From positions 68,554 to 132,553 of the forward strand of contig JAUSED010000008.1 in the NCBI GenBank assembly GCA_030650425.1: a stretch of DNA of 64,000 nt. Direction: 5' to 3'. Origin of the DNA: Candidatus Omnitrophota bacterium (GTDB taxonomy: Bacteria > Omnitrophota > Gorgyraeia > Gygaellales > Profunditerraquicolaceae). The notes under the pieces were generated by a model that saw nothing but the letters and a program-made list of their open reading frames with translations, had not been told where the DNA came from and did not search any database. Positions 1,947 to 45,363 of the stretch are shown here, in pieces. Every line of letters begins with the position of its first letter. The first letter of the stretch is position 1. A program made the position numbers and the translations under genes.

Positions 1947-1953
1947 GGAAGCG

Positions 1954-2012
1954 GCAGTAGGGGACACTTTCCTACGTTCGTTTACTGCTTGTTGGAAAGT
2001 GTCCCCTACTGC
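1954..2012. repeat. perfect 19-bp inverted repeat (GCAGTAGGGGACACTTTCC ... GGAAAGTGTCCCCTACTGC) around a 21-nt loop, immediately after the rmlA stop
   Basis: Read directly from sequence. The arms are exact reverse complements. No downstream U-tract. Confidence 0.9.
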
Positions 2013-2023
2013 TGTCGAAGTCT

Positions 2024-2040
2024 GGAAAATGTCCCCTAGG
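2024..2040. repeat. third, degenerate copy of the same arm (GGAAAATGTCCCCTAGG) 11 nt after the hairpin
   Basis: Matches the right arm at 14 of 17 positions. Lies just upstream of the next start codon. Confidence 0.6.
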
Positions 2041-2048
2041 ATGCTAAA

Positions 2049-7568: not shown

Positions 7569-9579
<2,011 letters not shown>

Positions 9580-11305: not shown

Positions 11306-12271
11306 ATGAAAGAAGACCGGTTATTTGATCGTAAAGCATTAAAATTAGAATCCTTATCCCAAAGGAAGAGTGATTTGAATGTTTCCATAATCGCGCCGCT
11401 GGATTTTAACTTAAACTTTAAATCAAACGGTGACTTGAAAGAAATTAGTAAGCGGATAATCAGGGCCAAAAAGAAGAAAGCCTCCGTCATCTGGATGATA
11501 GGCGGGCACGTTATCAGGTCAGGGGTACAGCGATATATCATAGATTTGATGGAGAGAGGATATATTTCCTGTTTGGCGATGAACGGAGCCGGGATAATTC
11601 ATGATTATGAATTATCTCTTATTGGGGCAACTACCGAGAGCGTGGCTCAATATATCAAAGAAGGGCAGTTCGGTTTATGGAAAGAAACAGGAGAAATCAA
11701 TAATATAATCAATAGAAGCTACAAGCAGGGACTTGGTTTGGGCGAGGGAGTTGGTAAAGCTATTTACGAAGGCGATTTTCCTTATAAAGAGTTTAGCCTG
11801 TTGGCAGCAGGTTATCGTTTGAAGATTCCGGTAACGGTGCACGTCGGCATAGGTTATGATATTATCCATGAGCATCCTAATTGCGATGGCGCGGCAACGG
11901 GCGCTACTTCTTACCGCGATTTTCTAATCTTTACCAAATTAGTCAGCAATCTGGAAAGGGGAGTAATCATGAATTTCGGGAGCGCAGTAATGGCCCCGGA
12001 GGTATTCTTGAAGGCCTTGAGCATGGCAAGGAACGCTCTCCGCCGGAAGAAGAAGCAAATCAGGCATTTTACTTCAGTTGTCTGCGACCTTTATAATTTA
12101 CCGGCTAAATTTAACAAAGAACCGGATAAGCGCAATCCGGGTTATTATTTCAGGCCGTGGAAGACAATGCTCGTCAGGACAGTAGCTGACGGAGGAAGCT
12201 CTTTTTACGTCAAAGGCTGCCACGCGGATATTCTCCCTGCGCTTTGGAAAGAGATTAATGAAAATTCTTGA
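11306..12271 (+). CDS. deoxyhypusine-synthase-like (DHS-fold) protein of unknown function
   Basis: Segment VIWMIGGHVIRSGVQRYIIDLMERGYISCLAMNGAGIIHDYE matches the DHS core block [41 protein letters not shown]. 321 aa. Confidence 0.4.
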   Translation: MKEDRLFDRKALKLESLSQRKSDLNVSIIAPLDFNLNFKSNGDLKEISKRIIRAKKKKASVIWMIGGHVIRSGVQRYIIDLMERGYISCLAMNGAGIIHDYELSLIGATTESVAQYIKEGQFGLWKETGEINNIINRSYKQGLGLGEGVGKAIYEGDFPYKEFSLLAAGYRLKIPVTVHVGIGYDIIHEHPNCDGAATGATSYRDFLIFTKLVSNLERGVIMNFGSAVMAPEVFLKALSMARNALRRKKKQIRHFTSVVCDLYNLPAKFNKEPDKRNPGYYFRPWKTMLVRTVADGGSSFYVKGCHADILPALWKEINENS

Positions 12272-12734
12272 AATCGACAGTTTGGCAAAGACAATTAAAG
12301 GCCTGAAGGCTTCCGGAAAAAAGGTTGTCCTCTGTCACGGCTGTTTTGACCTTATGCACCCCGGACATATTAAATATTTTCAAGCCGCTAAAAAAATGGG
12401 GGATATTCTTGTTGTAACGGTTACCCCTGATATTTATATTGATAAAGGGCCGGGGAGGCCGGTATTTAACCAGCAATTACGGGTTGAATCAATCGCCGCC
12501 CTTGAATGCGTTGATTATGTAGCGCTAAATCAGTGGTCCACGGCAGAAGAAACCTTGAGGTTATTAAGGCCTGATATATATGTTAAAGGGCAGGAATTCG
12601 AAGGGCTTCAAGATAAGACTGGGAAACTCCAGAAAGAATTAAAAGTTATTCAGGAAGTCGGAGCCGAAATAAGGTTTACTCATGAGGTGGTATTTTCTTC
12701 AACCAGATTAATTAATAATAACCTTAAAAAATAA
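12258..12734 (+). CDS. cytidylyltransferase-like nucleotidyltransferase (HldE/RfaE domain II-like; heptose-1-phosphate adenylyltransferase family)
   Basis: VVLCHGCFDLMHPGHIKYF; 158 aa stand-alone domain. Confidence 0.7.
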   Translation: MKILEIDSLAKTIKGLKASGKKVVLCHGCFDLMHPGHIKYFQAAKKMGDILVVTVTPDIYIDKGPGRPVFNQQLRVESIAALECVDYVALNQWSTAEETLRLLRPDIYVKGQEFEGLQDKTGKLQKELKVIQEVGAEIRFTHEVVFSSTRLINNNLKK

Positions 12735-12735: not shown

Positions 12736-14268
12736 ATGAAAAACACGCCCAAAAGTAAAATATTATTGCTTGATGATTTAATTAATAAAGTAAAGAGCCT
12801 TAAGGCTTCCGGAAAAGTTGTAGTCCAGAGCCACGGAATCTTTGACTTAATCCATCCCGGAGTGATCGAACATCTTAAATCAGCTAAGGAACGAGGAGAT
12901 GTGTTGATAGCTACCGTTATCACGGATAAAGATGTGCGTAAGGGTCCGGGTAGGCCGATCTTCTCCGGAAATTTAAGGGCAGAAAATGTAGCGAGCCTTT
13001 CTATGGTTGATTATGTTTGCGTGGTAGGTGATGAAACACCTTTTGAATGCGTAAAAAGAATAAAACCGAATATTTTTGCCAAAGGAAAATCAATAAAAGA
13101 TCTTGATAATGAAATTAACAATAAGATATTTGAAGAAGTAAAGGAGCTTTATTTCGGAAAGGTAAGGATCCATGAAACCGGTGGCTTCTCTTTAAGCTCT
13201 TCGGAAATAATCAATAATTTTATTGATATCTATCCTGAAGAGGTAAAAAGCTTTCTGAAAGACTTCTCCAGGAAATACAGTTTTAAGGAGATAAGCAGAA
13301 AGATAAACAGCTTAAATAAATTAAAGATACTTCTTGTTGGTGACGGCATAATAGATGAGTATCATTATTGCGAGGCTATGGGTAGGTCAGCTAAGGCTCC
13401 GCTGGTGGTAAATAAATATATAACCCATGAGATATTTGCCGGAGGCGCTTTTGCCATTGCGAACCATTTGGCGGGATTATCAGGAAACATTCATTTAGTC
13501 TCTTTACTGGGAAACGAACCAGCCAGGGAGGATTTTATTCGCTCCAACTTGAAACCGAATGTAACTACGAAGTTTTTTTACCGTAAAGACGGCTCTACAA
13601 TAGTAAAAAAGAGGTACATAAACCAGTATCAGAACCAAAAACTTTTTGAAGTTAATTACCTAAGCGACTCTTATATTAATGGTGGTTTGGAATCAGGGAT
13701 AATTAAATACTTGAATAGCGTGGCAGCGTCTTATGATTTAATCTTGATTTCCGATTTTGGCCATGGTTTTATTACGAATCGGATAATCGAAGCAATTCAG
13801 GATTCTAAGGTTAAGTTTGCGGTGAATACCCAGACAAATGCCGCTAATGCCGGCTTTAACATGATTACCAAGTATCGTAAGCCGTTTTATGTTTGCTTGG
13901 ATGAACCGGAATTAAGATGGGCAGCGCAAGAGAGATTCGCCGATATTGAATCTGTAGCTAAGAAAATCCTGGAAACCGTCCATGCCTCTAACCTTGTTGT
14001 AACCTTGGGTAAAAGAGGCTCATTTGGGATAAATAATAGAGGCCAGATAAATTATACTCCTATTTTTTCTTCAAAAGTTATAGATACTGTAGGTGCTGGC
14101 GACGCTTTTTTTGCTTTTACCGCGCCTTGTGTTGCTCAGAAGATGCCTCTGGATTTAGTTTCTTTTATCGGAAATGCCGTAGGGGCCTTAGCAGTTCAGA
14201 TCGTTTGTAACAAAAGACCAATTGAAAAATATGAACTCCTTGAGTTTATCCACGCGCTAATGAAGTAG
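12736..14268 (+). CDS. bifunctional nucleotidyltransferase (N-terminal) / PfkB-family sugar kinase (C-terminal); HldE-like with reversed domain order
   Basis: N-terminal VVVQSHGIFDLIHPGVIEHL (paralogue of the upstream gene). C-terminal DTVGAGDAFFAFTA ribokinase/PfkB motif. 510 aa. Confidence 0.7.
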   Translation: MKNTPKSKILLLDDLINKVKSLKASGKVVVQSHGIFDLIHPGVIEHLKSAKERGDVLIATVITDKDVRKGPGRPIFSGNLRAENVASLSMVDYVCVVGDETPFECVKRIKPNIFAKGKSIKDLDNEINNKIFEEVKELYFGKVRIHETGGFSLSSSEIINNFIDIYPEEVKSFLKDFSRKYSFKEISRKINSLNKLKILLVGDGIIDEYHYCEAMGRSAKAPLVVNKYITHEIFAGGAFAIANHLAGLSGNIHLVSLLGNEPAREDFIRSNLKPNVTTKFFYRKDGSTIVKKRYINQYQNQKLFEVNYLSDSYINGGLESGIIKYLNSVAASYDLILISDFGHGFITNRIIEAIQDSKVKFAVNTQTNAANAGFNMITKYRKPFYVCLDEPELRWAAQERFADIESVAKKILETVHASNLVVTLGKRGSFGINNRGQINYTPIFSSKVIDTVGAGDAFFAFTAPCVAQKMPLDLVSFIGNAVGALAVQIVCNKRPIEKYELLEFIHALMK

Positions 14269-14271: not shown

Positions 14272-14850
14272 TTGGATATGAAAAAAGATATAGGAAAATA
14301 CCATAAACGTTTTTTAAAGCTGATCGATTCTATTATAGCCACGGATTGCCGTAATAAAGATATCGATTTTCTTTTCGGCATTGAGATCGCCTGCAATTTA
14401 ATTAAAAAACAATCAAAAAAAAACAGTAAGATCTTTTTTGTCGGAAATGGCGGAAGCGCTGCTATTGCAAATCACGCTGCGATTGATTTTATGAAAAATT
14501 TGGGATTAAGGGCACATTCTTTCAGCGATAGTTCGCTATTAACCTGCATTAGTAATGATTTTGGATACGAATATGTTTTTGCTAAACCAATTGAGTTTTT
14601 TTCTGACAAAGAGGATGTACTAGTTACTATTAGTAGCTCTGGTAAGTCTAAAAATATACTAAAAGCAGTCGAGATTGCGGAGTCAAAAGGCGTTGATATC
14701 ATTACTTTATCAGGGTTTGATTTGAATAATCCCTTGCGCTCAAAGGGCGTTTGTAATTTTTATGTTCCCTCTAAAGAATACGGCCTTGTAGAAGTGGCGC
14801 ATCAATACATTTGTCACTATATCGCGGATATTCTAATGAAGCATAAATAA
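14272..14850 (+). CDS. gmhA: SIS-domain sedoheptulose-7-phosphate isomerase (GmhA-like)
   Basis: IFFVGNGGSAAIANHAAIDF...VLVTISSSGKSKNIL; 192 aa. Confidence 0.75.
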   Translation: MDMKKDIGKYHKRFLKLIDSIIATDCRNKDIDFLFGIEIACNLIKKQSKKNSKIFFVGNGGSAAIANHAAIDFMKNLGLRAHSFSDSSLLTCISNDFGYEYVFAKPIEFFSDKEDVLVTISSSGKSKNILKAVEIAESKGVDIITLSGFDLNNPLRSKGVCNFYVPSKEYGLVEVAHQYICHYIADILMKHK

Positions 14851-14852: not shown

Positions 14853-15920
14853 ATGGATAAATTCAAAATAGATAGCCATAAATTAATGTACCACGTGGAT
14901 CGTCTTTCAGATTGGCATGCCGGAAAGAATATCTATCCTATCTACATTGAAGTAGGTCCTTCGGGAGCCTGCAATCACCGTTGCGTGTATTGCGCGCTTG
15001 ACTTTATGGAGTATCAGCCACGCTTCCTTAAAACCGAGATCTTTTTGGAGCGCTTATCCGAATTCGGCGTTAAAGGCGTTCGAAGCATGATGTTCGCTGG
15101 CGAAGGCGAGCCATTCTTGCACAAAGATATAGCCGAGATCGCTGTACATACGAAAAAGGCTGGTATAGATGTCGCATTCACTACGAATGGGACTCTAATG
15201 AAAAGGGATATTGCTGAAAAGATCCTGGGGGTGACGGAATGGATCAAGATCAGCATTAATGGTGCAACAGCCGGTACATATGCCAAAATTCATCGGACAA
15301 CAGAGAATGATTTTCATCGTTTAATCAATAATTTGAAAGAGGCAGTCAATCTCCGGCGCAAGAACAATTATAGTTGTACCATCGGCATGCAGCTTCTATT
15401 GTTACCGGATAATTACCACGAGGCCGTCTCTTTGGCGCGCCTGGCTAGAGATATCGGATTGGATTATTTGGTGATCAAGCCGTATTCTCAGCATCCGCAG
15501 AGTAAAACTAATATTTATAGCAATATTAAATATAGCGATTATTTTTTCCTGCAGGATGAGTTACTTAAAGAGAATACGGCGGATTTTCAGGTTATTTTTC
15601 GTATAAATACAATGAAGAAATGGGACAATGGCCAGAAACCTTATAATCGCTGTATTGCCCAGCCGTTTTGGTCGCATATCGACGCGGGCGGAAATGTATG
15701 GGGTTGCAGCGCGTTCTTGAATGTCGAACGGTTCTTGTATGGCAACATCTATGAACAGACTTTTCAGGAGATTTGGGAGGGTAAAAAACGTTTGGAATCG
15801 CTGCATTGGGTTGAAGGGTACATGGATGCTACCGGTTGCCGTCTGAACTGTAGAATGGATGAGGTGAACCGGTACTTATGGGAATTAAAGATCCCACCAG
15901 AGCATGTGAATTTTATTTGA
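14853..15920 (+). CDS. radical SAM protein (with C-terminal Cys-rich SPASM/twitch-like region)
   Basis: CNHRCVYC (CxxxCxxC); later Cys cluster WGCSAF...GCRLNC. 355 aa. Confidence 0.7.
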   Translation: MDKFKIDSHKLMYHVDRLSDWHAGKNIYPIYIEVGPSGACNHRCVYCALDFMEYQPRFLKTEIFLERLSEFGVKGVRSMMFAGEGEPFLHKDIAEIAVHTKKAGIDVAFTTNGTLMKRDIAEKILGVTEWIKISINGATAGTYAKIHRTTENDFHRLINNLKEAVNLRRKNNYSCTIGMQLLLLPDNYHEAVSLARLARDIGLDYLVIKPYSQHPQSKTNIYSNIKYSDYFFLQDELLKENTADFQVIFRINTMKKWDNGQKPYNRCIAQPFWSHIDAGGNVWGCSAFLNVERFLYGNIYEQTFQEIWEGKKRLESLHWVEGYMDATGCRLNCRMDEVNRYLWELKIPPEHVNFI

Positions 15921-15944
15921 TATTAATATGAAAAAAGGATGTTT

Positions 15945-16787
15945 ATGCCGTTATCGATAGAAGAATTGGAAGTTAAAGCTCGCAAAGTTCGTCAAGAGAT
16001 TTTTAAGATGATCTGTGGCGCAGGCGGCGGGCATATCCCGGCTTGTTTATCCATCGTCGAAATTTTAGTTACGCTTTACAACGGTGTGCTTAGGGTTAAT
16101 CCTGGCGGGCCTCGCGATCCCGGTCGTGATCGATTCATTTTGAGTAAAGGGCACGGCGGTGTCGCGCTTTATGCCATATTGGCGGATAAAGGATTTCTTG
16201 ACCCTCGGCTTTTGTTAACCCATGGAAAGAAAGGAACTATTCTCGGTGGGCATCCGGATATGCATAAGGTCTCGGGGATCGAGGCTTCCACAGGAGCTCT
16301 CGGGCACGGGCTCCCTTTTGGCGCCGGTGTTGCGTTGGCAGCGAAAATAGACGCTAAAGATTATCGCGTATTTGTTCTTGTAGGAGACGGGGAATGCCAG
16401 GAGGGGAGTATTTGGGAAGCCGCGCTTTTTGCGCCTCAAATGAGACTCGATAATCTTACAGTAATTGTGGATCACAACAAGCTGCAAGCTATGGGCAGTT
16501 TAGACGATATTATCGGGTTATCTCCCTTTGCAGATAAATGGAAGGTTTTTGGTTGGGCAGTGGAAGAGGTTGATGGCAATAATATCAGTGATCTCCGCAA
16601 TACTTTTGGCCGGCTTCCTCTGAAGCCTGGCCGGCCAACTTGTATTGTCGCGCATACGCTCAAAGGAAAGGGAATTTCGTTTATGGAGAATGCGCCGATT
16701 TGGCACTATCGGATGCCAAATCCCGAAGAGATGAAGATGGCATGTGCAGAACTAGGATTGGCATTTGAAGATGGAGTTATCGAATGA
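15945..16787 (+). CDS. transketolase, N-terminal (TPP-binding) subunit
   Basis: Split transketolase N half: GHGG...LVGDGECQEGSIWEA. AAGGA RBS 6 nt upstream of ATG 15945. Confidence 0.8.
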   Translation: MPLSIEELEVKARKVRQEIFKMICGAGGGHIPACLSIVEILVTLYNGVLRVNPGGPRDPGRDRFILSKGHGGVALYAILADKGFLDPRLLLTHGKKGTILGGHPDMHKVSGIEASTGALGHGLPFGAGVALAAKIDAKDYRVFVLVGDGECQEGSIWEAALFAPQMRLDNLTVIVDHNKLQAMGSLDDIIGLSPFADKWKVFGWAVEEVDGNNISDLRNTFGRLPLKPGRPTCIVAHTLKGKGISFMENAPIWHYRMPNPEEMKMACAELGLAFEDGVIE

Positions 16788-17704
16788 GGAATGCTTACTT
16801 ATCGGCGTTATATGATTTAGCGAAAGAGAATAAAAATATAATGGCGTTGATTTCTGATAACGGCGCGATTGTTTATGATCAATATCGTGCGGATTTTCCT
16901 GAACAGTATCTTAACTGCGGGATTTCTGAAGCAAATATGGTCGGGGTTTCCGCCGGATTAGCGTCGTGCGGTAAGATCCCTTTTGCGTATACGATCGCGA
17001 ACTTTATAGTGTATCGCGCGTTTGAGCAGATCCGTAATGACGTCTGTCTTCAAAAAATGAATGTTAAATTAGTCGGAATTGGCGTTGGTTTTGTGTATAG
17101 CATTTTGGGGCCTACGCACCATACAACGGAAGATATCGCGTTGATGCGGGCGCTGCCGAATATGACTATTTTCTCTCCGTGTGACCCGCGAGAGGCGAAA
17201 AAGGTTACTTATGCCGCTGCTCAAATCAATGGCCCGGTTTATATCCGCCTGGCAACCGGCGGGACTCCGAAGGTTTATGAAAAAGATTATGATTTTCAGG
17301 TCGGCAGAGGCGTTGTCTTAAGAGAAGGCCGTGACCTAACAATGATTTCGACCGGTAGTATTTTGCTGGAGGCCTTGCAAGCGGCTGACCAGCTAAAGGC
17401 AGAGGGCGTAGGTGTACGGTTTATCAATATGCATACATTAAAGCCAATGGATCAGGCGATTATTCTAAAAGCCGCACGGGAGACAAGCCGTATTCTGATC
17501 GTTGAAGATCAAAATTTACAGGGAGGATTAGGTTCGGCGGTTGCCGAAACTTTGGCTGATAATGCAGTCGTCTGTAGATTCAAACGTTTAGGCTTACAAG
17601 ATGTTTTTACGGAAGGCTATGGTTCGTACCAGGATTTAAAGGAAATTAACGGGATCGCGAAGAAAAATATTAAGGATGCCGCTAAAGGCCTGTTGGAGGC
17701 GTAA
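16784..17704 (+). CDS. transketolase, C-terminal (pyrimidine-binding/transketolase C) subunit
   Basis: Split transketolase C half. ATGA overlap with the N subunit. Confidence 0.8.
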   Translation: MRNAYLSALYDLAKENKNIMALISDNGAIVYDQYRADFPEQYLNCGISEANMVGVSAGLASCGKIPFAYTIANFIVYRAFEQIRNDVCLQKMNVKLVGIGVGFVYSILGPTHHTTEDIALMRALPNMTIFSPCDPREAKKVTYAAAQINGPVYIRLATGGTPKVYEKDYDFQVGRGVVLREGRDLTMISTGSILLEALQAADQLKAEGVGVRFINMHTLKPMDQAIILKAARETSRILIVEDQNLQGGLGSAVAETLADNAVVCRFKRLGLQDVFTEGYGSYQDLKEINGIAKKNIKDAAKGLLEA

Positions 17705-17705
17705 G

Positions 17706-18371
17706 ATGGGACAATTATTGAATATTATCACTCCGCTGCATACAAGAACTAAACGTAATTATCTGGAACGTATGCAGAATGAAAAAGTATATTGTTCAGA
17801 AGTCGCCCGAAAATATGGAAAAGATTTCTGGGATGGCGACCGGCAGTTTGGTTATGGAGGATATAAATATGACGGCCGCTGGTCAGTTGCCGTGGAGGCG
17901 TTAGCCAGGCAGTATGGATTAAAGACGGATGCCCGTATTTTGGATGTCGGCTGCGGCAAAGGGTTTATGCTCTATGAGTTTAAAAATATTTTAAAGGATT
18001 GTACCGTCAAAGGTTTTGATATCTCCCATTATGCCGTTAAAAACGGCAAAGAGGAAATCAAGGAAGATTTATTCTGCCATAAAGCGGAAGCGGCGCCGTA
18101 TCCTTTTAAAGATAAAGAATTTGATTTGGTTATCTCCACGGGTACATTGCATAATTTGCGGGTTTATGATTTAAAGCAGGCGCTTCAGGAAATTGAGCGC
18201 GTTGGAAAGAATAAGTATATTTTGGTTGAAGCCTTCCGTAACATAGAGGAGCTTTTTAATCTTCAATGCTGGGCGTTGACCTGCGAACTGTTTTTCCGTC
18301 CCGAGGAGTGGGTCTGGTTATTCCAGGAATTCGGCTATACCGGAGATTATGAATTTATCTACTTTGAATAA
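17706..18371 (+). CDS. class I SAM-dependent methyltransferase
   Basis: ILDVGCGKGFMLYEF (motif I GxGxG); LVISTGTLHNL. ATG 17706 used, not the overlapping upstream extension. Confidence 0.7.
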   Translation: MGQLLNIITPLHTRTKRNYLERMQNEKVYCSEVARKYGKDFWDGDRQFGYGGYKYDGRWSVAVEALARQYGLKTDARILDVGCGKGFMLYEFKNILKDCTVKGFDISHYAVKNGKEEIKEDLFCHKAEAAPYPFKDKEFDLVISTGTLHNLRVYDLKQALQEIERVGKNKYILVEAFRNIEELFNLQCWALTCELFFRPEEWVWLFQEFGYTGDYEFIYFE

Positions 18372-18380: not shown

Positions 18381-19463
18381 ATGAAGAAAGAAGCCAGCCT
18401 TTTATATACTAAAATGAAGATTTTCCATTTTAAGGATAAAATCGATTCTTTGACTCGGAATAATCCTTTGATTATGCCTCCCTTGCATATTCGGATAAAG
18501 CCGACGAATGCCTGTAATCATAATTGTACTTATTGCGCTTATCGGGTGGATAACCTGCAACTTGGTAAAAACATGGAGACAAGAGATTCTATTCCGAAAG
18601 AAAAGATGCTCGAGATAATCGAAGATTTAAGGGAGATAAAAGTTAAAGCTGTTACTTTTAGCGGCGGAGGCGAGCCTTTTTGCTATCCCTATCTGTTTGA
18701 CGCGGTATTAAAGCTTATTAAATCAAAGATTTCCTTTGCTTCGCTAACTAACGGTTCTCTGCTCTCGGGAGATATTGCCGAACTCTTCAGCCGTTACGCT
18801 ACTTGGGTAAGGATTTCTATTGACGGCTGGGATGATAAGAGTTATTCCATCTACCGCCGGGTGCGCGAGGGCGAATTCAGTAAAGTTATACATAATATCA
18901 AGTGTTTTAAAAAAAATAGAGGAAGATGTTATTTAGGGGTGAGTATTGTTGTTAATAAGCATAACGCTCCCCATATATATGACCTTGTGATGCTTTTACG
19001 CGATAGCGGCACTGATAGCGTGAAGATATCGCCTTGTATTATCAGTAACAGTGGAAAAAGCAATAATGCTTATCATAGCAGTCTTTATAAAACAGTTAAA
19101 GGCCAAATTGCTAAGGCATATAGTAGGTGCGCTAAAAAAGGATTCGAGATTTTTGATTCATATCATACCCAACTGGAAAGTTTTGCCAAGTCTTACCATT
19201 GGTGTCCTTATTTACAGATTCTTCCGGTGATAGGAGCTGATTTAAATATCTATCCATGCCAAGATAAAGCATATAATCTTGATGAGGGATTGGTTGGTTC
19301 GATAAAAAAGGAAAGATTCAAGGATTTTTGGTTTTCAAATAAAAACAAGTTTTTTAAGGTAAATCCTGCAAAGGTTTGCAATCATCACTGCGTTGCAAAT
19401 GAGAAAAATAAGATGATTCTGGAATATTTAAATACGGACGCTAAGCATTTATTTTTCGTTTAG
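18381..19463 (+). CDS. radical SAM protein with C-terminal Cys-rich (SPASM-like) region; paralogue of 14853-15920
   Basis: CNHNCTYC; C-terminal CPYLQ...CQDKAYN...CNHHC. Confidence 0.7.
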   Translation: MKKEASLLYTKMKIFHFKDKIDSLTRNNPLIMPPLHIRIKPTNACNHNCTYCAYRVDNLQLGKNMETRDSIPKEKMLEIIEDLREIKVKAVTFSGGGEPFCYPYLFDAVLKLIKSKISFASLTNGSLLSGDIAELFSRYATWVRISIDGWDDKSYSIYRRVREGEFSKVIHNIKCFKKNRGRCYLGVSIVVNKHNAPHIYDLVMLLRDSGTDSVKISPCIISNSGKSNNAYHSSLYKTVKGQIAKAYSRCAKKGFEIFDSYHTQLESFAKSYHWCPYLQILPVIGADLNIYPCQDKAYNLDEGLVGSIKKERFKDFWFSNKNKFFKVNPAKVCNHHCVANEKNKMILEYLNTDAKHLFFV

Positions 19464-19492: not shown

Positions 19493-20371
19493 GTGAGGAA
19501 GGTTATTCTGCTTGGGCATACTGGTTTTGTCGGGTCTCATTTATATAAGTCACTGGTCCAAACTTTACCTGAAGTGCCGCTTGTAGGATCTTCATTCCCG
19601 GAGCTTGACCTGACGCGATCCGAAAGCGTTGGTATATTAAAGGCGTTATTCGATCGGCATACAGTGGTTATCCTTTGTTCAGGCATTAAGCGGCAGTTTG
19701 GCGATAGCCCGGATATCTTTGAAAAAAATGTTGCGATGTGTTTGAATGTTGTCCGGGCGTTAGAGGTATCGCCGGTTGCCAGGATGGTCTTTTTTAGTTC
19801 TATGGCTGTTTATGGGGAAGACATCCATAATATTGGCATTGATGAGAATACGCCCATATGTCCACGATCTTACTACGGCCTTGCGAAATATGTAGGGGAA
19901 CTTGTTTTCGAACGTATCTTCAGCCGTCAGAATGGTTCTTACGTGGCTATACGCCTGCCGGTTATTTATGGTCCTGGGGATGGAGGCAATACCTATGGCC
20001 CGGCCGGGTTCTTGAAAGCTGCGATGGAGGGCCGGGTAGTCACGCTATGGGGCGATGGGGAGGAGCTAAGGGAGTTTATATTTATTGATGATGTTGTCGA
20101 AATTGTTAAACGCCTCTTGACGGTTGAGTATCAAGGTGTTGTGAATGTTACTGCCGGTAAAAGTTACTCGTTTAGGGACATTTTGAATATTCTTGATCGA
20201 CTTTTGCCGCAAGGCGTTCAAGTGGCATCGCGGGCTCGTTCCAAGGATAAGGTGGATAATGCCAGCTGTAACGCCAAAATTCAGCAGTGGACGGGTGGGT
20301 TTGTTTTTACGGCTCTTGAGGATGGTATTCGAAAAATGTTTGAAGTCGAAAAGTCGCGTGTTAAACCGTAG
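19493..20371 (+). CDS. NAD-dependent epimerase/dehydratase family protein (possible NDP-sugar 4-reductase or heptose 6-epimerase-like)
   Basis: VILLGHTGFVGSHL; YGLAKYVGE; GTG start. Confidence 0.55.
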   Translation: MRKVILLGHTGFVGSHLYKSLVQTLPEVPLVGSSFPELDLTRSESVGILKALFDRHTVVILCSGIKRQFGDSPDIFEKNVAMCLNVVRALEVSPVARMVFFSSMAVYGEDIHNIGIDENTPICPRSYYGLAKYVGELVFERIFSRQNGSYVAIRLPVIYGPGDGGNTYGPAGFLKAAMEGRVVTLWGDGEELREFIFIDDVVEIVKRLLTVEYQGVVNVTAGKSYSFRDILNILDRLLPQGVQVASRARSKDKVDNASCNAKIQQWTGGFVFTALEDGIRKMFEVEKSRVKP

Positions 20372-20385: not shown

Positions 20386-21582
20386 ATGTTGCTTTGCAGG
20401 GCATGTTATTCCGAGAGCGTTTTCCCAATGCTTGATGTTGGATTGCAACCGTTGAGTAATCGGTTTGTTTGTATAAAAGGCGAAGAGGAGCCGCTTTTTC
20501 CTTTTAAGTGGAATTTATGCCGGCGTTGCGGGCTCGTTCAGTTTGATACTTCTGTGCCGGCTGATGAACTTAAGCCGCGTTTCAATTGGATCACCTACAG
20601 CGAACCCGAAGACCATTTAGATGATATGGTGGATATGCTTGAGGAATTACCTGGAATGACAACAAATTCGCTTCTTATGGGTGTGAGCTATAAAGATGAT
20701 ACAACGCTTCGCCGTTTTGAGAAGAAAGGCGTAACGCGCACAATTCGTATTGATCAAGCGGCTGACCTCGGCATTACGGATAGGTGCGCTGGAATAGAGA
20801 CACTGCAGAATCGTATTATTCCAGAGCGAATGCTCGAGGTTTCCGCTAAATATGGGCGGGTTAATATGGTTATTGTCCGCCAGGTGCTTGAGCATGCGGA
20901 GGATCTAAGGGCTTTTTTAAATGGTCTCAAAGAATTAATTGCGCCCGGCGGTTATGTTGTTATTGAGGTCCCTGATTCTTTACGCGCGATTGAACGTTGT
21001 GACTATACGATGCTTTGGGAGGAGCATGTTGTATATTTTACCCCATCAACCTTTCGCCGTTGCCTTAATGAGGCGGGATTCAATGTGGTGAATTTTATCG
21101 TTTATCCGTATACCTTTGAGGACTCTTTGGTTTGTGTTGCCCAGATCGGAAAACATGGCGGGGTGCAGCAAAAGGAAGAGGTGAAAAAGGCTTTGTTAGA
21201 TGCGGAACATTTCGCGAAAGAATTCAAGGGTTATGGTATTAAATTCAAAAATGCGCTGGAAGCATTTTATCGGGAAAAGGGTAAAATTGCCATATTTGGA
21301 GCCGGACACCAGGCCTGCGGCTACGTTAATTTTTTTGGCCTCACGGATCTGATCGACTTTGTGGTAGATGACAATCCTAATAAAAAGGAGCTTTTTATGC
21401 CGGGTTCGCAATTACCGATTCTGAGTTCCCGGGCTTTGTTGGAACGGGATATTAAACTATGCCTGTTGACGATTAATCCCATTCGCGAAGAGAACGTATT
21501 ATTACGTAATTGCGCTTTTGTTGGTCAGGGGGGCCAGTTTAGGTCCATTTTTTTGTCCAGCCGTCACGCATTTAAGTGCTAA
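20386..21582 (+). CDS. NDP-hexose C-methyltransferase family protein (TylC3/NovU-like: Zn-ribbon + class I MT + C-MT C-terminal domain)
   Basis: N-terminal CRAC...CRRC zinc ribbon; MT core VIEVPD; C-terminal Rossmann-like region (IFGAGHQA). 398 aa. Confidence 0.55.
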   Translation: MLLCRACYSESVFPMLDVGLQPLSNRFVCIKGEEEPLFPFKWNLCRRCGLVQFDTSVPADELKPRFNWITYSEPEDHLDDMVDMLEELPGMTTNSLLMGVSYKDDTTLRRFEKKGVTRTIRIDQAADLGITDRCAGIETLQNRIIPERMLEVSAKYGRVNMVIVRQVLEHAEDLRAFLNGLKELIAPGGYVVIEVPDSLRAIERCDYTMLWEEHVVYFTPSTFRRCLNEAGFNVVNFIVYPYTFEDSLVCVAQIGKHGGVQQKEEVKKALLDAEHFAKEFKGYGIKFKNALEAFYREKGKIAIFGAGHQACGYVNFFGLTDLIDFVVDDNPNKKELFMPGSQLPILSSRALLERDIKLCLLTINPIREENVLLRNCAFVGQGGQFRSIFLSSRHAFKC

Positions 21583-21591
21583 GGAGGTTTG

Positions 21592-22101
21592 ATGGTTTAT
21601 AAAAAGATAAATGACGAAGTTTTGTATTCTGATGAGCAGATCGTTACGGTGAGCGCCTCTGACCTTGCGTTTTTGAAAGAAGCCGCTACGCACAATGTGC
21701 GTAAACGAATTCGTTTATGCACCCATACCGGGGTAAATGATAAAGTCCATGAAATGTTCATTGTCCATATGAAGGGCGCCTATGTTCGTCCGCATAAAAT
21801 TTTAGGTAAGAGTGAGTCATTCCAGGTTCTTGAGGGCGAGGTTGACGTTATTTTGTATGCCGATGATGGCCGCCTGACGCGGGTTATTAAGATGGGGGAT
21901 ATGGCTTCTGATAAGGCGTTTTATTATAGGCTTCCCGAGTCGGTCTTCCATACGCTTCGCGTCCGTTCCGAGGTGGTTTGTTTTAAGGAGGTCACGCTTG
22001 GCCCATTTATCTCTAATGGTACGATTTTTGCGCCGTGGTCGCCAGACCAGAATGATCTTTCTGGTGTGGCGAAGTTCTTAGAGAAGCTTAACGAGGCATA
22101 G
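21592..22101 (+). CDS. cupin-fold protein (possibly WbuC family)
   Basis: Small beta-rich protein with His-containing motifs (HTGVNDKVHEMFIVHMKG) between two C-methyltransferase genes. AGGAGG RBS. Confidence 0.35.
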   Translation: MVYKKINDEVLYSDEQIVTVSASDLAFLKEAATHNVRKRIRLCTHTGVNDKVHEMFIVHMKGAYVRPHKILGKSESFQVLEGEVDVILYADDGRLTRVIKMGDMASDKAFYYRLPESVFHTLRVRSEVVCFKEVTLGPFISNGTIFAPWSPDQNDLSGVAKFLEKLNEA

Positions 22102-22147
22102 ACTTTTAAAAGACTAGGGGAAACAGAGTAAATAAAAAGGAAAAAAG

Positions 22148-23398
22148 ATGAAAAAAGAATATTATAAAAGATCTACCTGCCGTCTATGTGATTCAACAAG
22201 GGTTTACTCCGGAGTAAAATTTGAGGCGACTCCGCCCGGCGATACTTTTGTAACACAAGCGGAGATTAACCGGGCACAAAAGAGATATCCTATTGATGTT
22301 TGTCTCTGCGAGGATTGCGGCAGTATTCAGCTTTTAGATGTGGTAAACCCAGAGATTCTTTATGGCCCTTATCTTTATCAGACATCCATCTCTCTGGGGT
22401 TGCCTGAGCATTTTCGCAGGTATGCAGATGAGGTTTTGGCTGCGGTAGCCATTAAGCCGGGCAGCCTGGTTATTGATATCGGCAGTAATGACGGGACCCT
22501 TTTGCGGTGTTTTCAGGAAAGAGGTATGAAGGTATTGGGGATAGATCCCGCGTCGGCGGCGGTTAAGACTGCCCTTGCAAGAGGGGTTGATACGATTCAG
22601 GCGTTCTTTGACCGAAACCTGGCCAGGAAAATACGCAGCGAGCGGGGAGATGTCGGGATCGTAGCTGCTAATAATGTGATTGCTAATGTTGATGCGCTGG
22701 GGGATTTCGTAGACGGCATCAGAGAACTTATTGAGCCTAACGGATATTTTGTGATGGAAACCGGCTGCGGGGCGTCCCTTCTTGAGAAACGATTAATTGA
22801 TGTGGTCTATCACGAGCACCTTTCTTATTTTACAGTAAAACCTTTGGAGGGTTTCTTTCGTCGGCATGGGATGAAGATTATTGATGCGTATTGGATTCCC
22901 TCTAAAGGGGGTTCGATTCGTTGTTTTGTTCAAGCGGATAAATCTTCGGCCATTCCGAAGCCGTCGGTTAGGGAGATGATTTATATGGAAGAAGATAAAG
23001 GCATTGGCACTATGGATTCGCTCCGCAAGATGGGCGTGTTTATCACGGAAAGAAAAAAAGGGTTAACATCTCTTCTTGATGGTCTTCGGGCGCAGGGAAA
23101 GACGATCGTTGGTTACGGCGCTTCTGTTGGCGTGACCACGCTCTTGTACCTCTTTGGTTTGGATAAGTACCTGGATTATCTGGTTGATGATGATGCAACG
23201 CGATTTGAGCGTTTTTCTCCCGGGCAGCATATCCCGGTGTATTCGTCGGTTGTCCTTAATGAAAAAAACCCCGATTATGTCCTTATTTTAGCGTGGCGCT
23301 ATACAGACCCGATTATGAAACGCCACGAAAAATATATCCAGCAGGGAGGAAGGTTTATTTCACTTTTGCCCGAGTTAAAGATTTTCGGTGTTTCTTAA
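22148..23398 (+). CDS. NDP-hexose C-methyltransferase family protein (TylC3-like), second paralogue
   Basis: CRLC...CEDC zinc ribbon; VIDIGSNDGTLL motif I; same architecture as 20386-21582. Confidence 0.55.
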   Translation: MKKEYYKRSTCRLCDSTRVYSGVKFEATPPGDTFVTQAEINRAQKRYPIDVCLCEDCGSIQLLDVVNPEILYGPYLYQTSISLGLPEHFRRYADEVLAAVAIKPGSLVIDIGSNDGTLLRCFQERGMKVLGIDPASAAVKTALARGVDTIQAFFDRNLARKIRSERGDVGIVAANNVIANVDALGDFVDGIRELIEPNGYFVMETGCGASLLEKRLIDVVYHEHLSYFTVKPLEGFFRRHGMKIIDAYWIPSKGGSIRCFVQADKSSAIPKPSVREMIYMEEDKGIGTMDSLRKMGVFITERKKGLTSLLDGLRAQGKTIVGYGASVGVTTLLYLFGLDKYLDYLVDDDATRFERFSPGQHIPVYSSVVLNEKNPDYVLILAWRYTDPIMKRHEKYIQQGGRFISLLPELKIFGVS

Positions 23399-23419: not shown

Positions 23420-24571
23420 TTGAAGAAGGCAAAAAGTTTTTTAGAGTTTTATGGTGAGCATAATATTTCTCCTGTTCGGCAGGATTTATCCGATTATCTG
23501 AAGCATCGCCTCCGGAGAGAATGTTTGTATAGGCACTTAGGTTTATTACCGAGTTATTTTACAGGAAAGAAGATTTTGGAATTCGGCCCGGGAGGCGGAT
23601 TCAATTCCCTTATTATTGCGGATTTTGGTCCAAGACAGTATACTTTAGTGGAAGGGAATCCACAGGGAGTAAGGGAGATAAAGGCTAATTTTAAAAAGCA
23701 TCCTTTATTAAATTTTGGCCGGTTCAAGGTAGTTCACTCTAAGGTAGAGGATTATTCAACCAAAGAATTATTCGATATCGCTATTTGTGAATGCATGGTT
23801 CCTCATTCCAAGAATCAGGCGGTCATCTTGAATAAGCTGGATTCTTTATTGCTCCCGAAGGGAGTTATGATTGTGACTTGCGAAGATGAAATATCTTCTT
23901 TTTATGAATTTATTAAGCGGTATTTTGCCTTTCAGCTCGTAAAGGATGTTGTCGGTTTTGAAAACAAGGTTTCTATTTTGGTTGAGGCATTTGAGCGCCA
24001 TAAGAAAACCTTACTCGGTAGCAGCAGGTATACCCGTGATTGGGTTATAGATACTTTTTTAAACGAAGCGGTTTTTAATCCGTTATTTTCCATTAAGGAT
24101 TGCCTTGCCTCTTTGGGGAAAAAATATCTGGTTTACCATACCTCTCCGATGATTTTTACCGATTATCGATGGTACAAATCTATCCCTGAAGATCGCAAAA
24201 GTTTTAATAATTATGTCATAGAGGAATTTGATACAATCCGGCATAATTTATTTTTTACGAATAAAAATTTTAATAAGCGCACAAAAATTAAGAACGATAA
24301 GTTATCTAAGCTTTGCTGGCAAGCCAGGAGGTTAATTTATCTTAATGAAATGAAAGGATTGGATGTAAAAAAAAGCATGCTTGAGGTTATTTCCGGATTA
24401 ATATCTAATTTAAAAGACACAGACAATGACGTCCTTGGGTCTCTAAGGGATATTCGGGAACTCTTGAAGATGAAAATACAAGTTAAGGATATCAGTCAAA
24501 AGTATCCATTGTTTATAAAAGCCTTTGGAAAAGTGTCACAATACATAAGCCTGATAAAAAATCATGAATAA
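23420..24571 (+). CDS. putative SAM-dependent methyltransferase (class I-like) with a long C-terminal extension
   Basis: ILEFGPGGGFNSLIIA motif I. TTG start with GGAGGG RBS. Confidence 0.45.
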   Translation: MKKAKSFLEFYGEHNISPVRQDLSDYLKHRLRRECLYRHLGLLPSYFTGKKILEFGPGGGFNSLIIADFGPRQYTLVEGNPQGVREIKANFKKHPLLNFGRFKVVHSKVEDYSTKELFDIAICECMVPHSKNQAVILNKLDSLLLPKGVMIVTCEDEISSFYEFIKRYFAFQLVKDVVGFENKVSILVEAFERHKKTLLGSSRYTRDWVIDTFLNEAVFNPLFSIKDCLASLGKKYLVYHTSPMIFTDYRWYKSIPEDRKSFNNYVIEEFDTIRHNLFFTNKNFNKRTKIKNDKLSKLCWQARRLIYLNEMKGLDVKKSMLEVISGLISNLKDTDNDVLGSLRDIRELLKMKIQVKDISQKYPLFIKAFGKVSQYISLIKNHE

Positions 24572-25310
24572 ACATATTCTGATTATTGGCGGTACCAGGG
24601 GGTTGGGTAAAGTATTGGTTAAGAATCTTTTAAAAAAGAAATACGTTTTGTCTGTAGTTGGCCGAACAGCCGCCTTCTCCCGGCGCGCTCACCCCGGGAT
24701 AGTTTATTGGCCATATGATTTACGGCATACCCAAAATATCCCCAGGCTTATTTCGCGTATTTTAAAGGCAAAAGGCAAGCTTGACAGCATCGTTTTTCTG
24801 CAAAGATTTAGAGGACAGGGAGACGCTTGGCAGGGAGAAATAGATGTTAGTCTGACCGCAACTAAGATTATTATTGATAGCGCGGCAGGGCATTTTAATA
24901 AAAAAGGGAATAAGACAATTGTGATTGTAAGCTCTATTGCGGGCTCATTAATTGTAGAAGACCAACCTTTAAGTTACCATGTGGGGAAAGCAGCCTTGAA
25001 CCAGATGGTCAGATTTTATGCTGTTAAGTTAGCCGTAAAGGGAGTGCGGGTTAACGGGGTCTCTCCGACATTGGTCCTAAAGCCCGAGTCAAAACAGTTT
25101 TATTTAAAGGATAAGGGCCTCTACAATTTATATAAGGCGGTCCACCCTTTAAATAAAATAAATACGGCGGAAGAAGTAGCCGATATTATTGAATTCCTTA
25201 TGCATGACAAATCCAGGGCAATTTCCGGTCAAAACATTGTTGTTGACGGAGCCTTATCTTTGCAGGGACACGAAAGCCTGGCTGTAAAATTAAATAATTT
25301 TGGGGAATAA
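24564..25310 (+). CDS. short-chain dehydrogenase/reductase (SDR)
   Basis: ILIIGGTRGLGK; YHVGKAAL (YxxxK). Confidence 0.7.
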   Translation: MNKHILIIGGTRGLGKVLVKNLLKKKYVLSVVGRTAAFSRRAHPGIVYWPYDLRHTQNIPRLISRILKAKGKLDSIVFLQRFRGQGDAWQGEIDVSLTATKIIIDSAAGHFNKKGNKTIVIVSSIAGSLIVEDQPLSYHVGKAALNQMVRFYAVKLAVKGVRVNGVSPTLVLKPESKQFYLKDKGLYNLYKAVHPLNKINTAEEVADIIEFLMHDKSRAISGQNIVVDGALSLQGHESLAVKLNNFGE

Positions 25311-25333: not shown

Positions 25334-26587
25334 ATGCAAAATCTCCATAAAAGGATAAATTTGATTAGGAAGATTTATTTGTTGAGTAAAAAAATTTGTT
25401 TCTTCATTTTGGCTATGCCTTTTATTATGGTTATGTCAATATTACGGCCGTTTATCTTAGTACGTTTAGGGCTTGTTGATATTGGGCGCTTTGGTGGCGT
25501 GTATGACGCCGAATGGTATTTGGCTGAACGGGCTGCGGGTATTCATCAAAAAAGAAGTTTTGATCTATTTTTTTTCTTTCGCTCTACAGGGATTATCTCT
25601 AATCAGTTTTGGGAAAAATTATGGAAACGGACATTAAATGTTTTTCCTTTTTGGCGGCTTGGGTACACTTTATATACATTATGCCATAAATTTCAGGTGC
25701 TTCATGTACATATTATACCCCTGGATGATGTCAGGCCAATTTATGGAAAAGAATATAAGGGATTTATAACACATCATTGTATTTTAAAGCATTACCAGCC
25801 CCCTGTTTTATTTACCCCTGAGGAAGAATTATTGGGGAAAGACGCTTTGGAGCATTTTGGTATTTCGCAGAGCAAGCCTTTTATATGTTTTCATGCAAGG
25901 GATTCTGCTTATTTGGAAAGGATAGCGCCTAATTGCGATTGGCGGTATCACGGTTATAGAGATTCGGATATTAAAAATTATATTCCGGCGGCAGAAGAAC
26001 TGATGCGCCGCGGTTATTATACCGTCAGAATGGGGGTTTTTGTAAAAGAGAAGTTATCTCTTGAAAATCCTTTGTTTATCGATTATGCCATGAATGGCAA
26101 GCGGACAGAATTTTTGGATATATATTTGGGAGCAAAATGCCGTTTCTTTGTCTGTTCTGATACCGGCATATCTATGGTCCCTGAAGTTTTTAGGAGGCCG
26201 TTGGTCTATGTAAACTGGGTGCCTTTACTACGCTGCCCCGCATTCTATGTCCATAATGCTTTATTGATTCCTAAAAAGTTTATTTTAAAAAAAGAAAAAC
26301 GCGAGCTGACATTTCGGGAGATTATTTTTTCACCAATAGGAAGCACGTTTGAAAAGGGAGTTTTTGACCGGATGGGGATAGAGTTAATAGAGAATACGCC
26401 GGAGGAAATTACAGCTGTAGCCTTGGAAATGGATGAACGTTTTAATGGTAGATGGAAAACAACAGATGAAGATGAGGAGTTGCAGCGGCGTTTTTGGAAA
26501 CTTTTTGAGTCGTACGAATTAAATAATCCCGGCGTTAGAATAGGCGCTGAATTTTTACGCCAGCACAAATATTTATTGGATAATTAA
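25334..26587 (+). CDS. putative GT-B-like glycosyltransferase of uncharacterised family (TIGR04372-like), paralogue A
   Basis: CRFFVCSDTGISMVPEVFRRPLVYVNWVP, a GT-B C-terminal-like block shared with the next gene. Confidence 0.35.
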   Translation: MQNLHKRINLIRKIYLLSKKICFFILAMPFIMVMSILRPFILVRLGLVDIGRFGGVYDAEWYLAERAAGIHQKRSFDLFFFFRSTGIISNQFWEKLWKRTLNVFPFWRLGYTLYTLCHKFQVLHVHIIPLDDVRPIYGKEYKGFITHHCILKHYQPPVLFTPEEELLGKDALEHFGISQSKPFICFHARDSAYLERIAPNCDWRYHGYRDSDIKNYIPAAEELMRRGYYTVRMGVFVKEKLSLENPLFIDYAMNGKRTEFLDIYLGAKCRFFVCSDTGISMVPEVFRRPLVYVNWVPLLRCPAFYVHNALLIPKKFILKKEKRELTFREIIFSPIGSTFEKGVFDRMGIELIENTPEEITAVALEMDERFNGRWKTTDEDEELQRRFWKLFESYELNNPGVRIGAEFLRQHKYLLDN

Positions 26588-45327: not shown

Positions 45328-45363
45328 ACGGTTTTATTTAGTTGTAATAGGTTGGTGTCAAAA

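Follow-up and report, generated by a model that had tools for sequence, protein, structure and literature searches.

TcaB9, KijD1, MtmC, TylC3, EryBIII and AviG1 (PDB 3NDI, 5T64, 4RV9) are 3-C-methyltransferases that act on deoxythymidine diphosphate (dTDP)-4-keto sugars in the deoxysugar pathways of antibiotics. A related protein has also been placed in a cell-surface pathway: the TylCIII homologue CBU_0691 of Coxiella burnetii has been proposed, by in silico prediction only, for the virenose (6-deoxy-3-C-methylgulose) of lipopolysaccharide (PMC3539893). In this study we describe a locus from Candidatus Omnitrophota bacterium (assembly GCA_030650425.1, contig JAUSED010000008.1, positions 68,554 to 132,553; this stretch of 64,000 nucleotides is called the window below) in which two proteins of the TylC3 architecture, MT-A and MT-B, flank a cupin of the WbuC family. 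Our main interpretation, to which we give a probability of roughly 0.5, is that MT-B is a real C-methyltransferase and that MT-A belongs to an ancient sister clade which binds nucleoside diphosphate (NDP) sugars without S-adenosylmethionine (SAM) and forms one unit with the WbuC cupin and often with SDR19, a short-chain dehydrogenase/reductase (SDR). A single C-methylation would then be the most likely outcome of the pathway. The three genes are the following.

20386-21582, + strand: MT-A, 398 amino acids, a TylC3-fold protein of the 'WEEH' clade with a zinc ribbon, a remodelled methyltransferase core and an NDP-sugar C-terminal domain
21592-22101, + strand: WbuC-family cupin, 169 amino acids from ATG 21592 (170 amino acids from the mechanical open reading frame start, TTG 21589)
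22148-23398, + strand: MT-B, 416 amino acids, a canonical putative SAM-dependent NDP-keto-sugar C-methyltransferase of the TylC3/TcaB9/MtmC type

The genes are separated by gaps of 6-46 nt, all on the + strand. A Shine-Dalgarno sequence, AAGGAGG, directly follows the stop codon of MT-A, and ATG 21592, the likely start of the cupin, lies 3 nt beyond it. Promoter-like and terminator-like sites internal to the gene run did not exceed the shuffled expectation, which together with the small gaps is consistent with a single operon. The sequence of MT-A is on record, identical, in a Candidatus Omnitrophota metagenome-assembled genome at NCBI, and the gene order is repeated in a second assembly. Long open reading frames, strong profile matches, this identical protein and hundreds of orthologues exclude chance as the source of these genes.

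The first-pass annotation of this DNA, made from the sequence alone, had described the outer two proteins as related enzymes around a cupin, each with a zinc ribbon, a class I methyltransferase core and a sugar C-methyltransferase C-terminal domain, and this description agrees with our analysis. MT-A and MT-B are homologous yet distant (24% identity, E = 3e-31). The Methyltransf_13/14 profile search that the annotation had proposed found PF08421 (Methyltransf_13) and PF08484 (Methyltransf_14) in both, together with PF13489 (Methyltransf_23), all above the curated cut-offs, so that neither protein lacks the C-terminal domain. The scores for PF08421, PF13489 and PF08484 were 48.1, 51.5 and 53.9 bits in MT-A and 59.4, 55.8 and 144.8 bits in MT-B, the cut-off for PF08421 being 31.3. 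The assignment of both to the TylC3, NovU and EryBIII type fits MT-B, which matches MtmC at 1e-75 and has an intact SAM motif and most of the catalytic residues, but not MT-A, in which the SAM loop is replaced. Automatic annotation labels the two alike as 'class I SAM-dependent methyltransferase', and a domain count would lead one to expect a pair of C-methyl branches. The three-domain architecture of MT-A and MT-B alike indeed speaks for two active SAM-dependent C-methyltransferases. One sugar would then carry two C-methyl branches, or two sugars would carry one apiece, and the cupin would serve between the two enzymes as a plain epimerase. We consider this quite unlikely, and the evidence that bears on it begins with the active site of MT-A.

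20395-20529, + strand: zinc ribbon CxxC...CxxC of MT-A (C4, C7, C45, C48), aligned to the four cysteines of TcaB9 and MtmC
20680-20700, + strand: loop GVSYKDD of MT-A (residues 99-105), in the place of the SAM motif I of TcaB9 (E111-G117, EIGCNDG)
20893-20895, + strand: His170 of MT-A, equivalent to TcaB9 His181, invariant
21016-21027, + strand: WEEH of MT-A (residues 211-214), equivalent to TcaB9 Y222-D-E224-H225, with the Glu-His pair kept and Tyr replaced by Trp

For this comparison the sequences of TcaB9 and MtmC were transcribed from alignments, with the numbering anchored by mutant chains. The roles of the TcaB9 residues were taken from PDB entry titles, from the mutant chains in the alignments and from PMC3539893; the entry titles name the mutants Y76F, H181N, Y222F, E224Q and H225N.

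The step from two enzymes to two C-methylations finds no support on the cofactor side of MT-A. Its PF13489 match is restricted to profile positions 74-162 (the PF08484 match covers positions 44-155), all six methyltransferase profiles align only from profile positions 47-74 on, leaving the motif I half of the core unmatched by any of them, and no NCBIfam model matched the protein. Where a C-methyltransferase has (D/E)IGxNxG, MT-A has GVSYKDD, and the change is clade-wide. Among 77 homologues of MT-A, G113 has become Ser in 44 and Thr in 33, N115 has become Lys in 75, G117 Asp in 72 or Glu in three, and E111 Gly in 58 or Ala in 18; Gly was found at neither of the motif I glycine positions in any of the 77. 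Two aromatic residues after beta3 (F154/F155) are lost as well. In the TylCIII family the motif I glycine and a downstream Asp contact the cofactor (PMC3539893). The replaced glycines, preceding acid and aromatics, and a motif I half that no profile recognises, argue against two active methyltransferases. The new loop is itself well conserved: its K, D and D are present in 72-75 of the 77 sequences, and the loop (S/T)(F/Y)KDD also occurs in 45 phmmer matches that were picked without any pattern.

The sugar side of the protein tells a different story. The cysteines of the zinc ribbon are kept in 71-76 of 80 clade members. Of the active-site set, His170, Glu213 and His214 are kept, Tyr76 is replaced by Phe66 (Y/F/V across the clade) and Tyr222 by Trp211. 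In an alignment of 30 sequences, the equivalents of His181, Glu224 and His225 and the C-terminal block FGAGH...DDNPxK...PGS are invariant. The AlphaFold2 model of MT-A (pLDDT, the predicted local distance difference test score, 91.8) matches MtmC, KijD1 and TcaB9 in Foldseek with template modelling (TM) scores of 0.76-0.79 over ~410 columns, and TamK 10-decarboxylase is a weak structural match. By sequence the best solved relative is again MtmC (2e-25, weak relative to MT-B). Hence MT-A shares with the TcaB9 group the fold, the zinc ribbon, the NDP-sugar domain and the His181/Glu224/His225 set, and differs from it in the missing glycine loop, in Trp for Tyr222 and Phe for Tyr76, and in an obligate pairing with a cupin. 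Judged by its residues, MT-A preserves the scaffold together with the part of the active site that faces the sugar, and has lost the canonical part that faces the cofactor. Because its zinc ribbon, its C-terminal domain and the counterparts of His181, Glu224 and His225 are kept, it would still bind an NDP-sugar. The retained Glu-His pair, the His181 equivalent and, in the window protein, the beta2 Asp also count in favour of two active methyltransferases.

The pairing with the cupin was seen in a scan of one genome per species, which found relatives of MT-A in at least 193 species-level genomes. We fetched 80 loci, 41 of which have complete flanks of 10 kb. The sources are Omnitrophota, Verrucomicrobiota, Planctomycetota, Acidobacteriota, Nitrospirota, cyanobacteria (including a plasmid of Crocosphaera watsonii), alphaproteobacteria (Bradyrhizobium, Bosea and Algihabitans) and archaea. 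The earlier remark that such enzymes are unusual outside antibiotic pathways therefore needs qualifying, as the MT-A clade alone reaches this number of genomes in many phyla. When all open reading frames of the window were searched by tblastn, a WbuC cupin was present in 71 of the 80 loci, in 58 of them less than 300 nt from MT-A, and SDR19 lay directly upstream of MT-A in 39. The fully flanked loci all contain the cupin (41 of 41), followed by a separate MT-B (34), the small methyltransferase MT17 (32), the transketolase subunits (28-30), a 4,6-dehydratase-like SDR (21), SDR19 (19), the classical SDR SDR24 (15) and the glycosyltransferase GT25 (10). The co-occurrence of MT-A and MT-B in 34 of 41 loci would suit two active methyltransferases; the seven loci with MT-A and cupin and no MT-B do not. 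MT-B is a frequent but separable addition to the MT-A/cupin pair.

The pairing extends to fusion. An exhaustive HMMER search from the cupin alone gave, among its best 150 representatives, at least 17 cluster representatives in which the genes are fused. Twelve are full-length MT-A/cupin fusions of 558-600 amino acids, one is truncated and one has the reverse order; three more join SDR19, MT-A and cupin in one chain of 811-929 amino acids (P0258, P0263, P0296). The methyltransferase parts of all 17 carry W(E/D)(E/D)H and not YxEH, and they score 172-356 bits against MT-A compared to 48-130 bits against MT-B. A rough neighbour-joining tree without bootstrap places the fusions and MT-A in one clade, separate from MT-B, MtmC and TcaB9. 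The fusions argue strongly that one molecule is the common target of MT-A, the cupin and SDR19. MT-A was found fused with cupin and SDR and never with MT-B, which again speaks against two parallel methyltransferases. The cupin is the obligate partner of MT-A. The architecture, the lost SAM motif of a conserved clade, the retained residues of the sugar side, the pairing, the fusions and the conservation of the cassette are what the sequences show directly. We regard it as quite probable that MT-A is no canonical C-methyltransferase of the SAM-dependent kind and that its function is linked to this cupin.

The reverse-order fusion, P0381 (590 amino acids), combines WEEH with a canonical loop, DVGCNDG, and GIEP. 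It is the sole member with such a loop and is basal in the rough tree, which suggests that the SAM loop was lost secondarily in the MT-A clade; from its motifs, P0381 may be a relative that still methylates and illustrates the origin of the clade. A basal member of this kind is a further point in favour of two active methyltransferases. Against them stand more basal fusion lineages in which the loop has drifted to unrelated sequences (e.g. GLSEHDV and VVTPFEN), a drift that would be intolerable for a SAM site.

MT-B presents the opposite picture.

22475-22495, + strand: SAM motif I of MT-B, DIGSNDG, placed by sequence alignment
22685-22687, + strand: Asn180 of MT-B, at the position of TcaB9 His181
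22808-22819, + strand: YHEH of MT-B, equivalent to TcaB9 Tyr222/Glu224/His225

Its sequence matches solved structures strongly (MtmC 1.2e-75, TcaB9 8e-61, KijD1 3e-58), with 35% identity to MtmC over 397 amino acids. The zinc-ribbon cysteines C11, C14, C54 and C57 align with those of TcaB9 and MtmC, the PF08484 match is full-length (profile positions 2-160 of 160), and the PF13489 match (positions 6-162) includes the motif I half. The acidic residue of beta2 is the Asp of GIDP, and Y75 is the equivalent of Tyr76, so that four of the five residues of the set Tyr76/His181/Tyr222/Glu224/His225 are kept, His181 being replaced by Asn180. The MT-B homologues of the cassettes retain the motif D/E-x-G-x-N-x-G in 58 of 58, Tyr76 in 57 of 58, and both Glu224 and His225 in 58 of 58. 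MT-B thus looks like a genuine SAM-dependent C-methyltransferase, a known family in a less familiar setting: it resembles the TcaB9 group in the three-domain architecture, the zinc ribbon, the SAM motif and Tyr76/Tyr222/Glu224/His225, and is unlike it in the Asn at His181 and in its surface-glycan, heptose-type context in place of a dTDP-2,6-dideoxyhexose antibiotic pathway. In the latter respect it is closer to CBU_0691, also a TylC3-type protein of a cell-surface glycan pathway outside antibiotics, with motif I and motif II conserved (PMC3539893). The description of CBU_0691, from which this likeness is drawn, names no MT-A-like partner, no WbuC cupin and no transketolase.

Two positions divide the cassette homologues of MT-B (loci L002-L081). 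At the position of His181 we counted 29 His and 29 Asn, and at that of Tyr222 37 Tyr and 20 Phe. Going by these residues, the splits may reflect two substrate or regiochemistry classes. Across the cassette loci, His or Asn at position 181 showed no clear correlation with a neighbouring SDR24.

The third component, the cupin, is a clear member of the WbuC family (TIGR04366/DUF6016), the cupin of E. coli O-antigen clusters of the N-acetyl-L-fucosamine (L-FucNAc) type. It scores 121.8 bits against TIGR04366 cupin_WbuC (cut-off 42) over model positions 2-132 of 132, and its AlphaFold2 model is a beta-barrel with a pLDDT of 96.9. Two sites correspond to the metal motifs.

21793-21816, + strand: cupin metal motif 1, H68-K-I70-x4-E75, in which the second His of the family pattern HxH(x)4E is Ile
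21949-21951, + strand: His of cupin metal motif 2, H120

Structural matches of the model, among them metal-dependent sugar isomerases and the CapF cupin domain, reach the generic cupin level only (TM score at most 0.6). The cupin had been guessed to be epimerase- or isomerase-like, which was reasonable, with the correction that it is a WbuC-family metal cupin and not of the RmlC/FdtA type. A link at sequence level between WbuC and CapF or sugar cupins of the RmlC/FdtA type was looked for by a profile search of PDB sequences and rejected, the sole match being a weak one to the metal motif of L-ribose isomerase (E = 0.019). Tandem double cupins of ~350 amino acids make up 25 of the best 150 WbuC-family representatives (e.g. 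P0241-P0249), including the nine top-scoring ones. In the titles and abstracts searched, WbuC figures as a gene neighbouring mcr-9 or blaCTX-M; the searchable literature held no mention of an association or fusion of WbuC with an MT-A-type protein.

A described system that combines an SDR and a cupin is CapF of Staphylococcus aureus, which carries out C3-epimerisation and then C4-reduction of a uridine diphosphate (UDP)-4-keto sugar in the synthesis of UDP-L-FucNAc (PMC3699295). The triple fusions resemble CapF in their N-terminal SDR and C-terminal cupin, and CapF is unlike them in having no TylC3-like domain between the two. The resemblance to CapF, whose counterpart in Pseudomonas aeruginosa is WbjC, is one of analogy and not of homology or membership. 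For the loss of methylation there is precedent as well. The cyclase SpnF and the hydroxylase RdmB are methyltransferase-fold enzymes that no longer methylate, and MT-A is like them in that a class I methyltransferase fold would have been recruited to other chemistry. Most non-methylating enzymes of this kind still bind SAM, and none is known to belong to the sugar C-methyltransferase family.

How the components might work together can be outlined as follows. MT-A, the cupin and MT-B would be co-transcribed within a conserved sugar-nucleotide tailoring cassette for a modified surface sugar, and the upstream GmhA-like, HldE-like and transketolase genes would probably supply an NDP-heptose-like sugar. 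In MT-B the Glu-His pair would enolise the NDP-4-keto sugar, and the methyl group would be transferred to the alpha-carbon, most likely C-3 by analogy with the closest solved relatives, with C-5, as in NovU, as the alternative; methylation by TylCIII inverts C-3' (PMC3539893). In MT-A, Glu213 and His214 would deprotonate the carbon adjoining the 4-keto group as a C-methyltransferase does. With no methyl donor, a proton would be returned from the opposite face, the candidate acid being the conserved Lys103 at the presumed place of the SAM methyl group, and the net result would be an epimer or isomer. Epimerisation and 4-keto reduction would be finished, in the fashion of CapF, by the metal cupin and by SDR19, which from its sequence is probably the 4-ketoreductase of the module. 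We infer that MT-A is a non-methylating enzyme of an epimerase or accessory type; the specific epimerase mechanism is the most probable of those considered, at well below an even chance. More broadly, the WEEH clade could be an unrecognised enzyme family in which a C-methyltransferase scaffold minus SAM became the subunit that binds the nucleotide sugar and enolises it, in a three-part machine with WbuC and SDR. The machine would epimerise or isomerise a 4-keto sugar of the NDP-heptose-like kind, or carry out C-C chemistry on it. This proposal is a tentative one, to which we give somewhat less than an even chance.

It might also be that MT-A catalyses nothing, as an inert pseudoenzyme scaffold that presents or channels an unstable 4-keto intermediate while cupin and SDR do all the chemistry. 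The obligate pairing and fusion with the cupin, the lost cofactor site and the well conserved NDP-sugar domain would fit such a role. However, the equivalents of His181, Glu224 and His225 are (near-)invariant and the K-D-D loop is strongly conserved, a pattern typical of a working active site and not of a mere binding module, and we hold a scaffold to be unlikely.

Another explanation starts from the former SAM pocket, around which four basic residues, K103, R110, R121 and R165, are new and invariant. A pocket lined by Lys and Arg could bind NAD(P)H and make MT-A a nicotinamide-dependent ketoreductase, comparable to the second activity of MtmC. MtmC is the best structural and sequence match of MT-A, and 4-ketoreductase activity has been reported for the TylCIII homologue of Streptomyces argillaceus (PMC3539893). 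MT-A shows no evident dinucleotide-binding motif, though, and a dedicated SDR immediately upstream in many loci, fused to it in three lineages, would make a second reductase redundant. Even with the loci that show no such SDR (see below), this explanation is very unlikely.

Several observations weigh against the interpretation of MT-A as a SAM-less partner of cupin and SDR. The beta2 Asp/Glu is retained in 53 of the 77 clade members, the window protein among them; without the glycine loop, SAM is unlikely to bind in the canonical way but may do so in an unusual one. The 80 loci were retrieved in part with a pattern that contains WEEH, so the invariance of WEEH among them is partly circular, although the loop lies outside that pattern. 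SDR19 is missing from about half of the fully flanked loci, and in 15 of the 41 neither SDR19 nor SDR24 was found at the thresholds used, a gap that the ketoreductase explanation would fill. The cupin of the window has Ile (ATT) at residue 70 (21799-21801), compared to His in 71 of 72 cupins adjoining MT-A homologues, and since a change of Ile to His requires two base changes this is not a simple sequencing error. In Foldseek the cupin matches CapF (4yrd/3st7) with E ~5e-6, TM scores of 0.46-0.49 and 15-17% identity, no better than many unrelated cupins, and a profile search of PDB sequences with the cupin did not find CapF. No member of the MT-A clade or the WbuC family with a tested function was found in PDB, NCBIfam or the searchable literature, so the chemistry of MT-A and the cupin is extrapolated. 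That MT-A does not bind SAM, which chemistry takes place, in what order the steps follow and which sugar is made are all what we infer.

As to the sugar, the genes around the three give some indication.

12258-12734, + strand: RfaE-II-like nucleotidyltransferase, divergent and below the equivalog cut-off
12736-14268, + strand: HldE-like nucleotidyltransferase and PfkB kinase in reverse domain order (NF008454, 155.5 bits compared to 521)
14272-14850, + strand: GmhA-like SIS isomerase (TIGR00441, 100.4 bits, cut-off 209.45)
14853-15920, + strand: radical SAM/SPASM protein, in the slot where most related cassettes carry a 4,6-dehydratase-like SDR
15939-16787, + strand: N-terminal subunit of a split transketolase (PF00456)
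16784-17704, + strand: C-terminal subunit of the split transketolase (PF02779/PF02780)
17676-18371, + strand: MT17, a small class I methyltransferase with a canonical motif
18381-19463, + strand: second radical SAM protein, between MT17 and SDR19
19493-20371, + strand: SDR19, an extended SDR (GxxGxxG, Y128xxxK) like GDP-fucose synthase/RmlD (PF01370, 124 bits; NF047922 full-length, below cut-off)
23420-24571, + strand: class I methyltransferase with a C-terminal extension
24564-25310, + strand: SDR24, a classical SDR
25334-26587, + strand: GT25, a glycosyltransferase of the TIGR04372 family

The RfaE-II-like, HldE-like and GmhA-like genes recur in related loci, and the two transketolase halves (NF004559, 259 and 243 bits) jointly reach the equivalog score. 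The first-pass annotation had suggested dTDP-4-keto-6-deoxyglucose as the substrate for an assay, which is doubtful beside these neighbours. An NDP-heptose-like substrate is probably the better guess, because the conserved neighbours are split transketolase, GmhA-like and HldE-like genes; a genuine RmlB is encoded elsewhere in the window, at 2843. The GmhA-like and HldE-like proteins did not match GmhA or HldE at equivalog level, and with scores so far below the cut-offs sedoheptulose 7-phosphate may be the precursor, or else a different ketose phosphate. A search of the literature for the Pfam and TIGRFAM families, or for C-methyltransferase with heptose and transketolase, found nothing relevant.

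The window shares one variant of the cassette with five other loci (L003, L014, L017, L026 and L031): a radical SAM/SPASM protein replaces the 4,6-dehydratase-like SDR, and a second radical SAM protein stands between MT17 and SDR19. This variant may offer an oxygen-independent route to a keto or deoxy intermediate.

The cassette also occurs in cultivable alphaproteobacteria, Bradyrhizobium sp. STM 3843 (L070) and unclassified Bradyrhizobium (L082-L084), with additional genes for a Zn-dependent alcohol dehydrogenase, an APH-type kinase, an NTP_transferase, a GT2 glycosyltransferase and an AsnB-like amidotransferase. Being cultivable, these bacteria would suit genetic work on the pathway. A different chemistry comes to mind here, in which the enolate formed by MT-A makes a C-C bond of aldol or cyclase type on a higher-carbon sugar, giving a branched or carbocyclic product of the caryose or bradyrhizose kind. 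Transketolase and heptose-type genes in the cassette, its presence in Bradyrhizobium and the existence of methyltransferase-fold cyclases such as SpnF would be in line with this idea. The known bradyrhizose producers BTAi1 and ORS278 have complete chromosomes of 7-8 Mb. None of the 120 best relatives of the STM 3843 protein (at least 59% identity) lies on a complete Bradyrhizobium chromosome of 7-8 Mb, the type expected for the producers, so a link between cassette and bradyrhizose is unsupported. For the published candidate operon of bradyrhizose, the description goes no further than 11 sugar-modification genes with a 4,6-dehydratase among them (PMC4743980). As there is also no direct evidence for an electrophilic partner, we consider C-C bond formation by MT-A highly improbable.

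The three genes and their cassette lie within a larger cluster. The whole window (1-64000) is a one-strand surface-glycan super-cluster with ~60 open reading frames of at least 150 amino acids on the + strand, almost without gaps, and includes genes of the Rml, GMD, pseudaminic/nonulosonic acid, aminosugar, B12-radical-SAM, glycosyltransferase and export classes. The GC skew is positive throughout.

1080-3886, + strand: RmlA/RmlB/RmlD-like genes
7569-9579, + strand: GMD and an Fcl-like SDR
9679, + strand: MarR_EPS regulator
10224, + strand: PseB
25334 and 26596, + strand: two TIGR04372 glycosyltransferases
30559, + strand: ATP-binding cassette (ABC) exporter
40327 and 60320, + strand: two cytidylyltransferases of the cytidine monophosphate (CMP) type
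41052, + strand: PseG-like protein
42049, + strand: NeuB
49981, + strand: PFTS-motif protein
51881, + strand: LIC13510-like protein

Three B12-binding radical SAM proteins (34546-36156, 38392-39771 and 45352-47031) may carry out additional C-methylation, or radical chemistry of another type, on sugars or on the groups attached to them. A 714-amino-acid protein at 32377-34521 fuses an RmlD-like reductase domain to a DegT/DnrJ/EryC1 aminotransferase domain, and a gene for a papain-family (Peptidase_C1) cysteine protease lies amid the sugar-nucleotide genes at 6825-7559. At 54943-55971 a protein of 342 amino acids matches PF13489 only at profile positions 76-163, as MT-A does, and has no NCBIfam match; no detectable kinship with MT-A was seen (E = 0.053). 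The genes that follow at 55982-61093 encode an SIS isomerase, an aldolase of the transaldolase/FSA family, an HpcH/HpaI aldolase, an HAD phosphatase, two classical SDRs and a CMP-type cytidylyltransferase. Their combination suggests a second module of the ketose-phosphate style for another higher sugar of the ulosonic type. Homologues of the genes at 55982 and 56597 adjoin MT-A in one related locus (L013).

If the broader proposal of a three-part machine is true, it would provide a first function for the widespread WbuC family and reveal a surface-sugar pathway common to Omnitrophota, Verrucomicrobiota, Planctomycetota, cyanobacteria, alphaproteobacteria and some archaea. If MT-A belongs to a large clade that no longer methylates, WbuC, known mostly beside mcr-9 and in O-antigen loci, would gain a concrete partner and context, and pathway predictions would be corrected for hundreds of environmental genomes. 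As such, MT-A would be another case of a methyltransferase fold recruited to different chemistry, in this case in sugar-nucleotide metabolism. The cassette would then flag a probably C-methylated higher sugar on the surfaces of many uncultured lineages.

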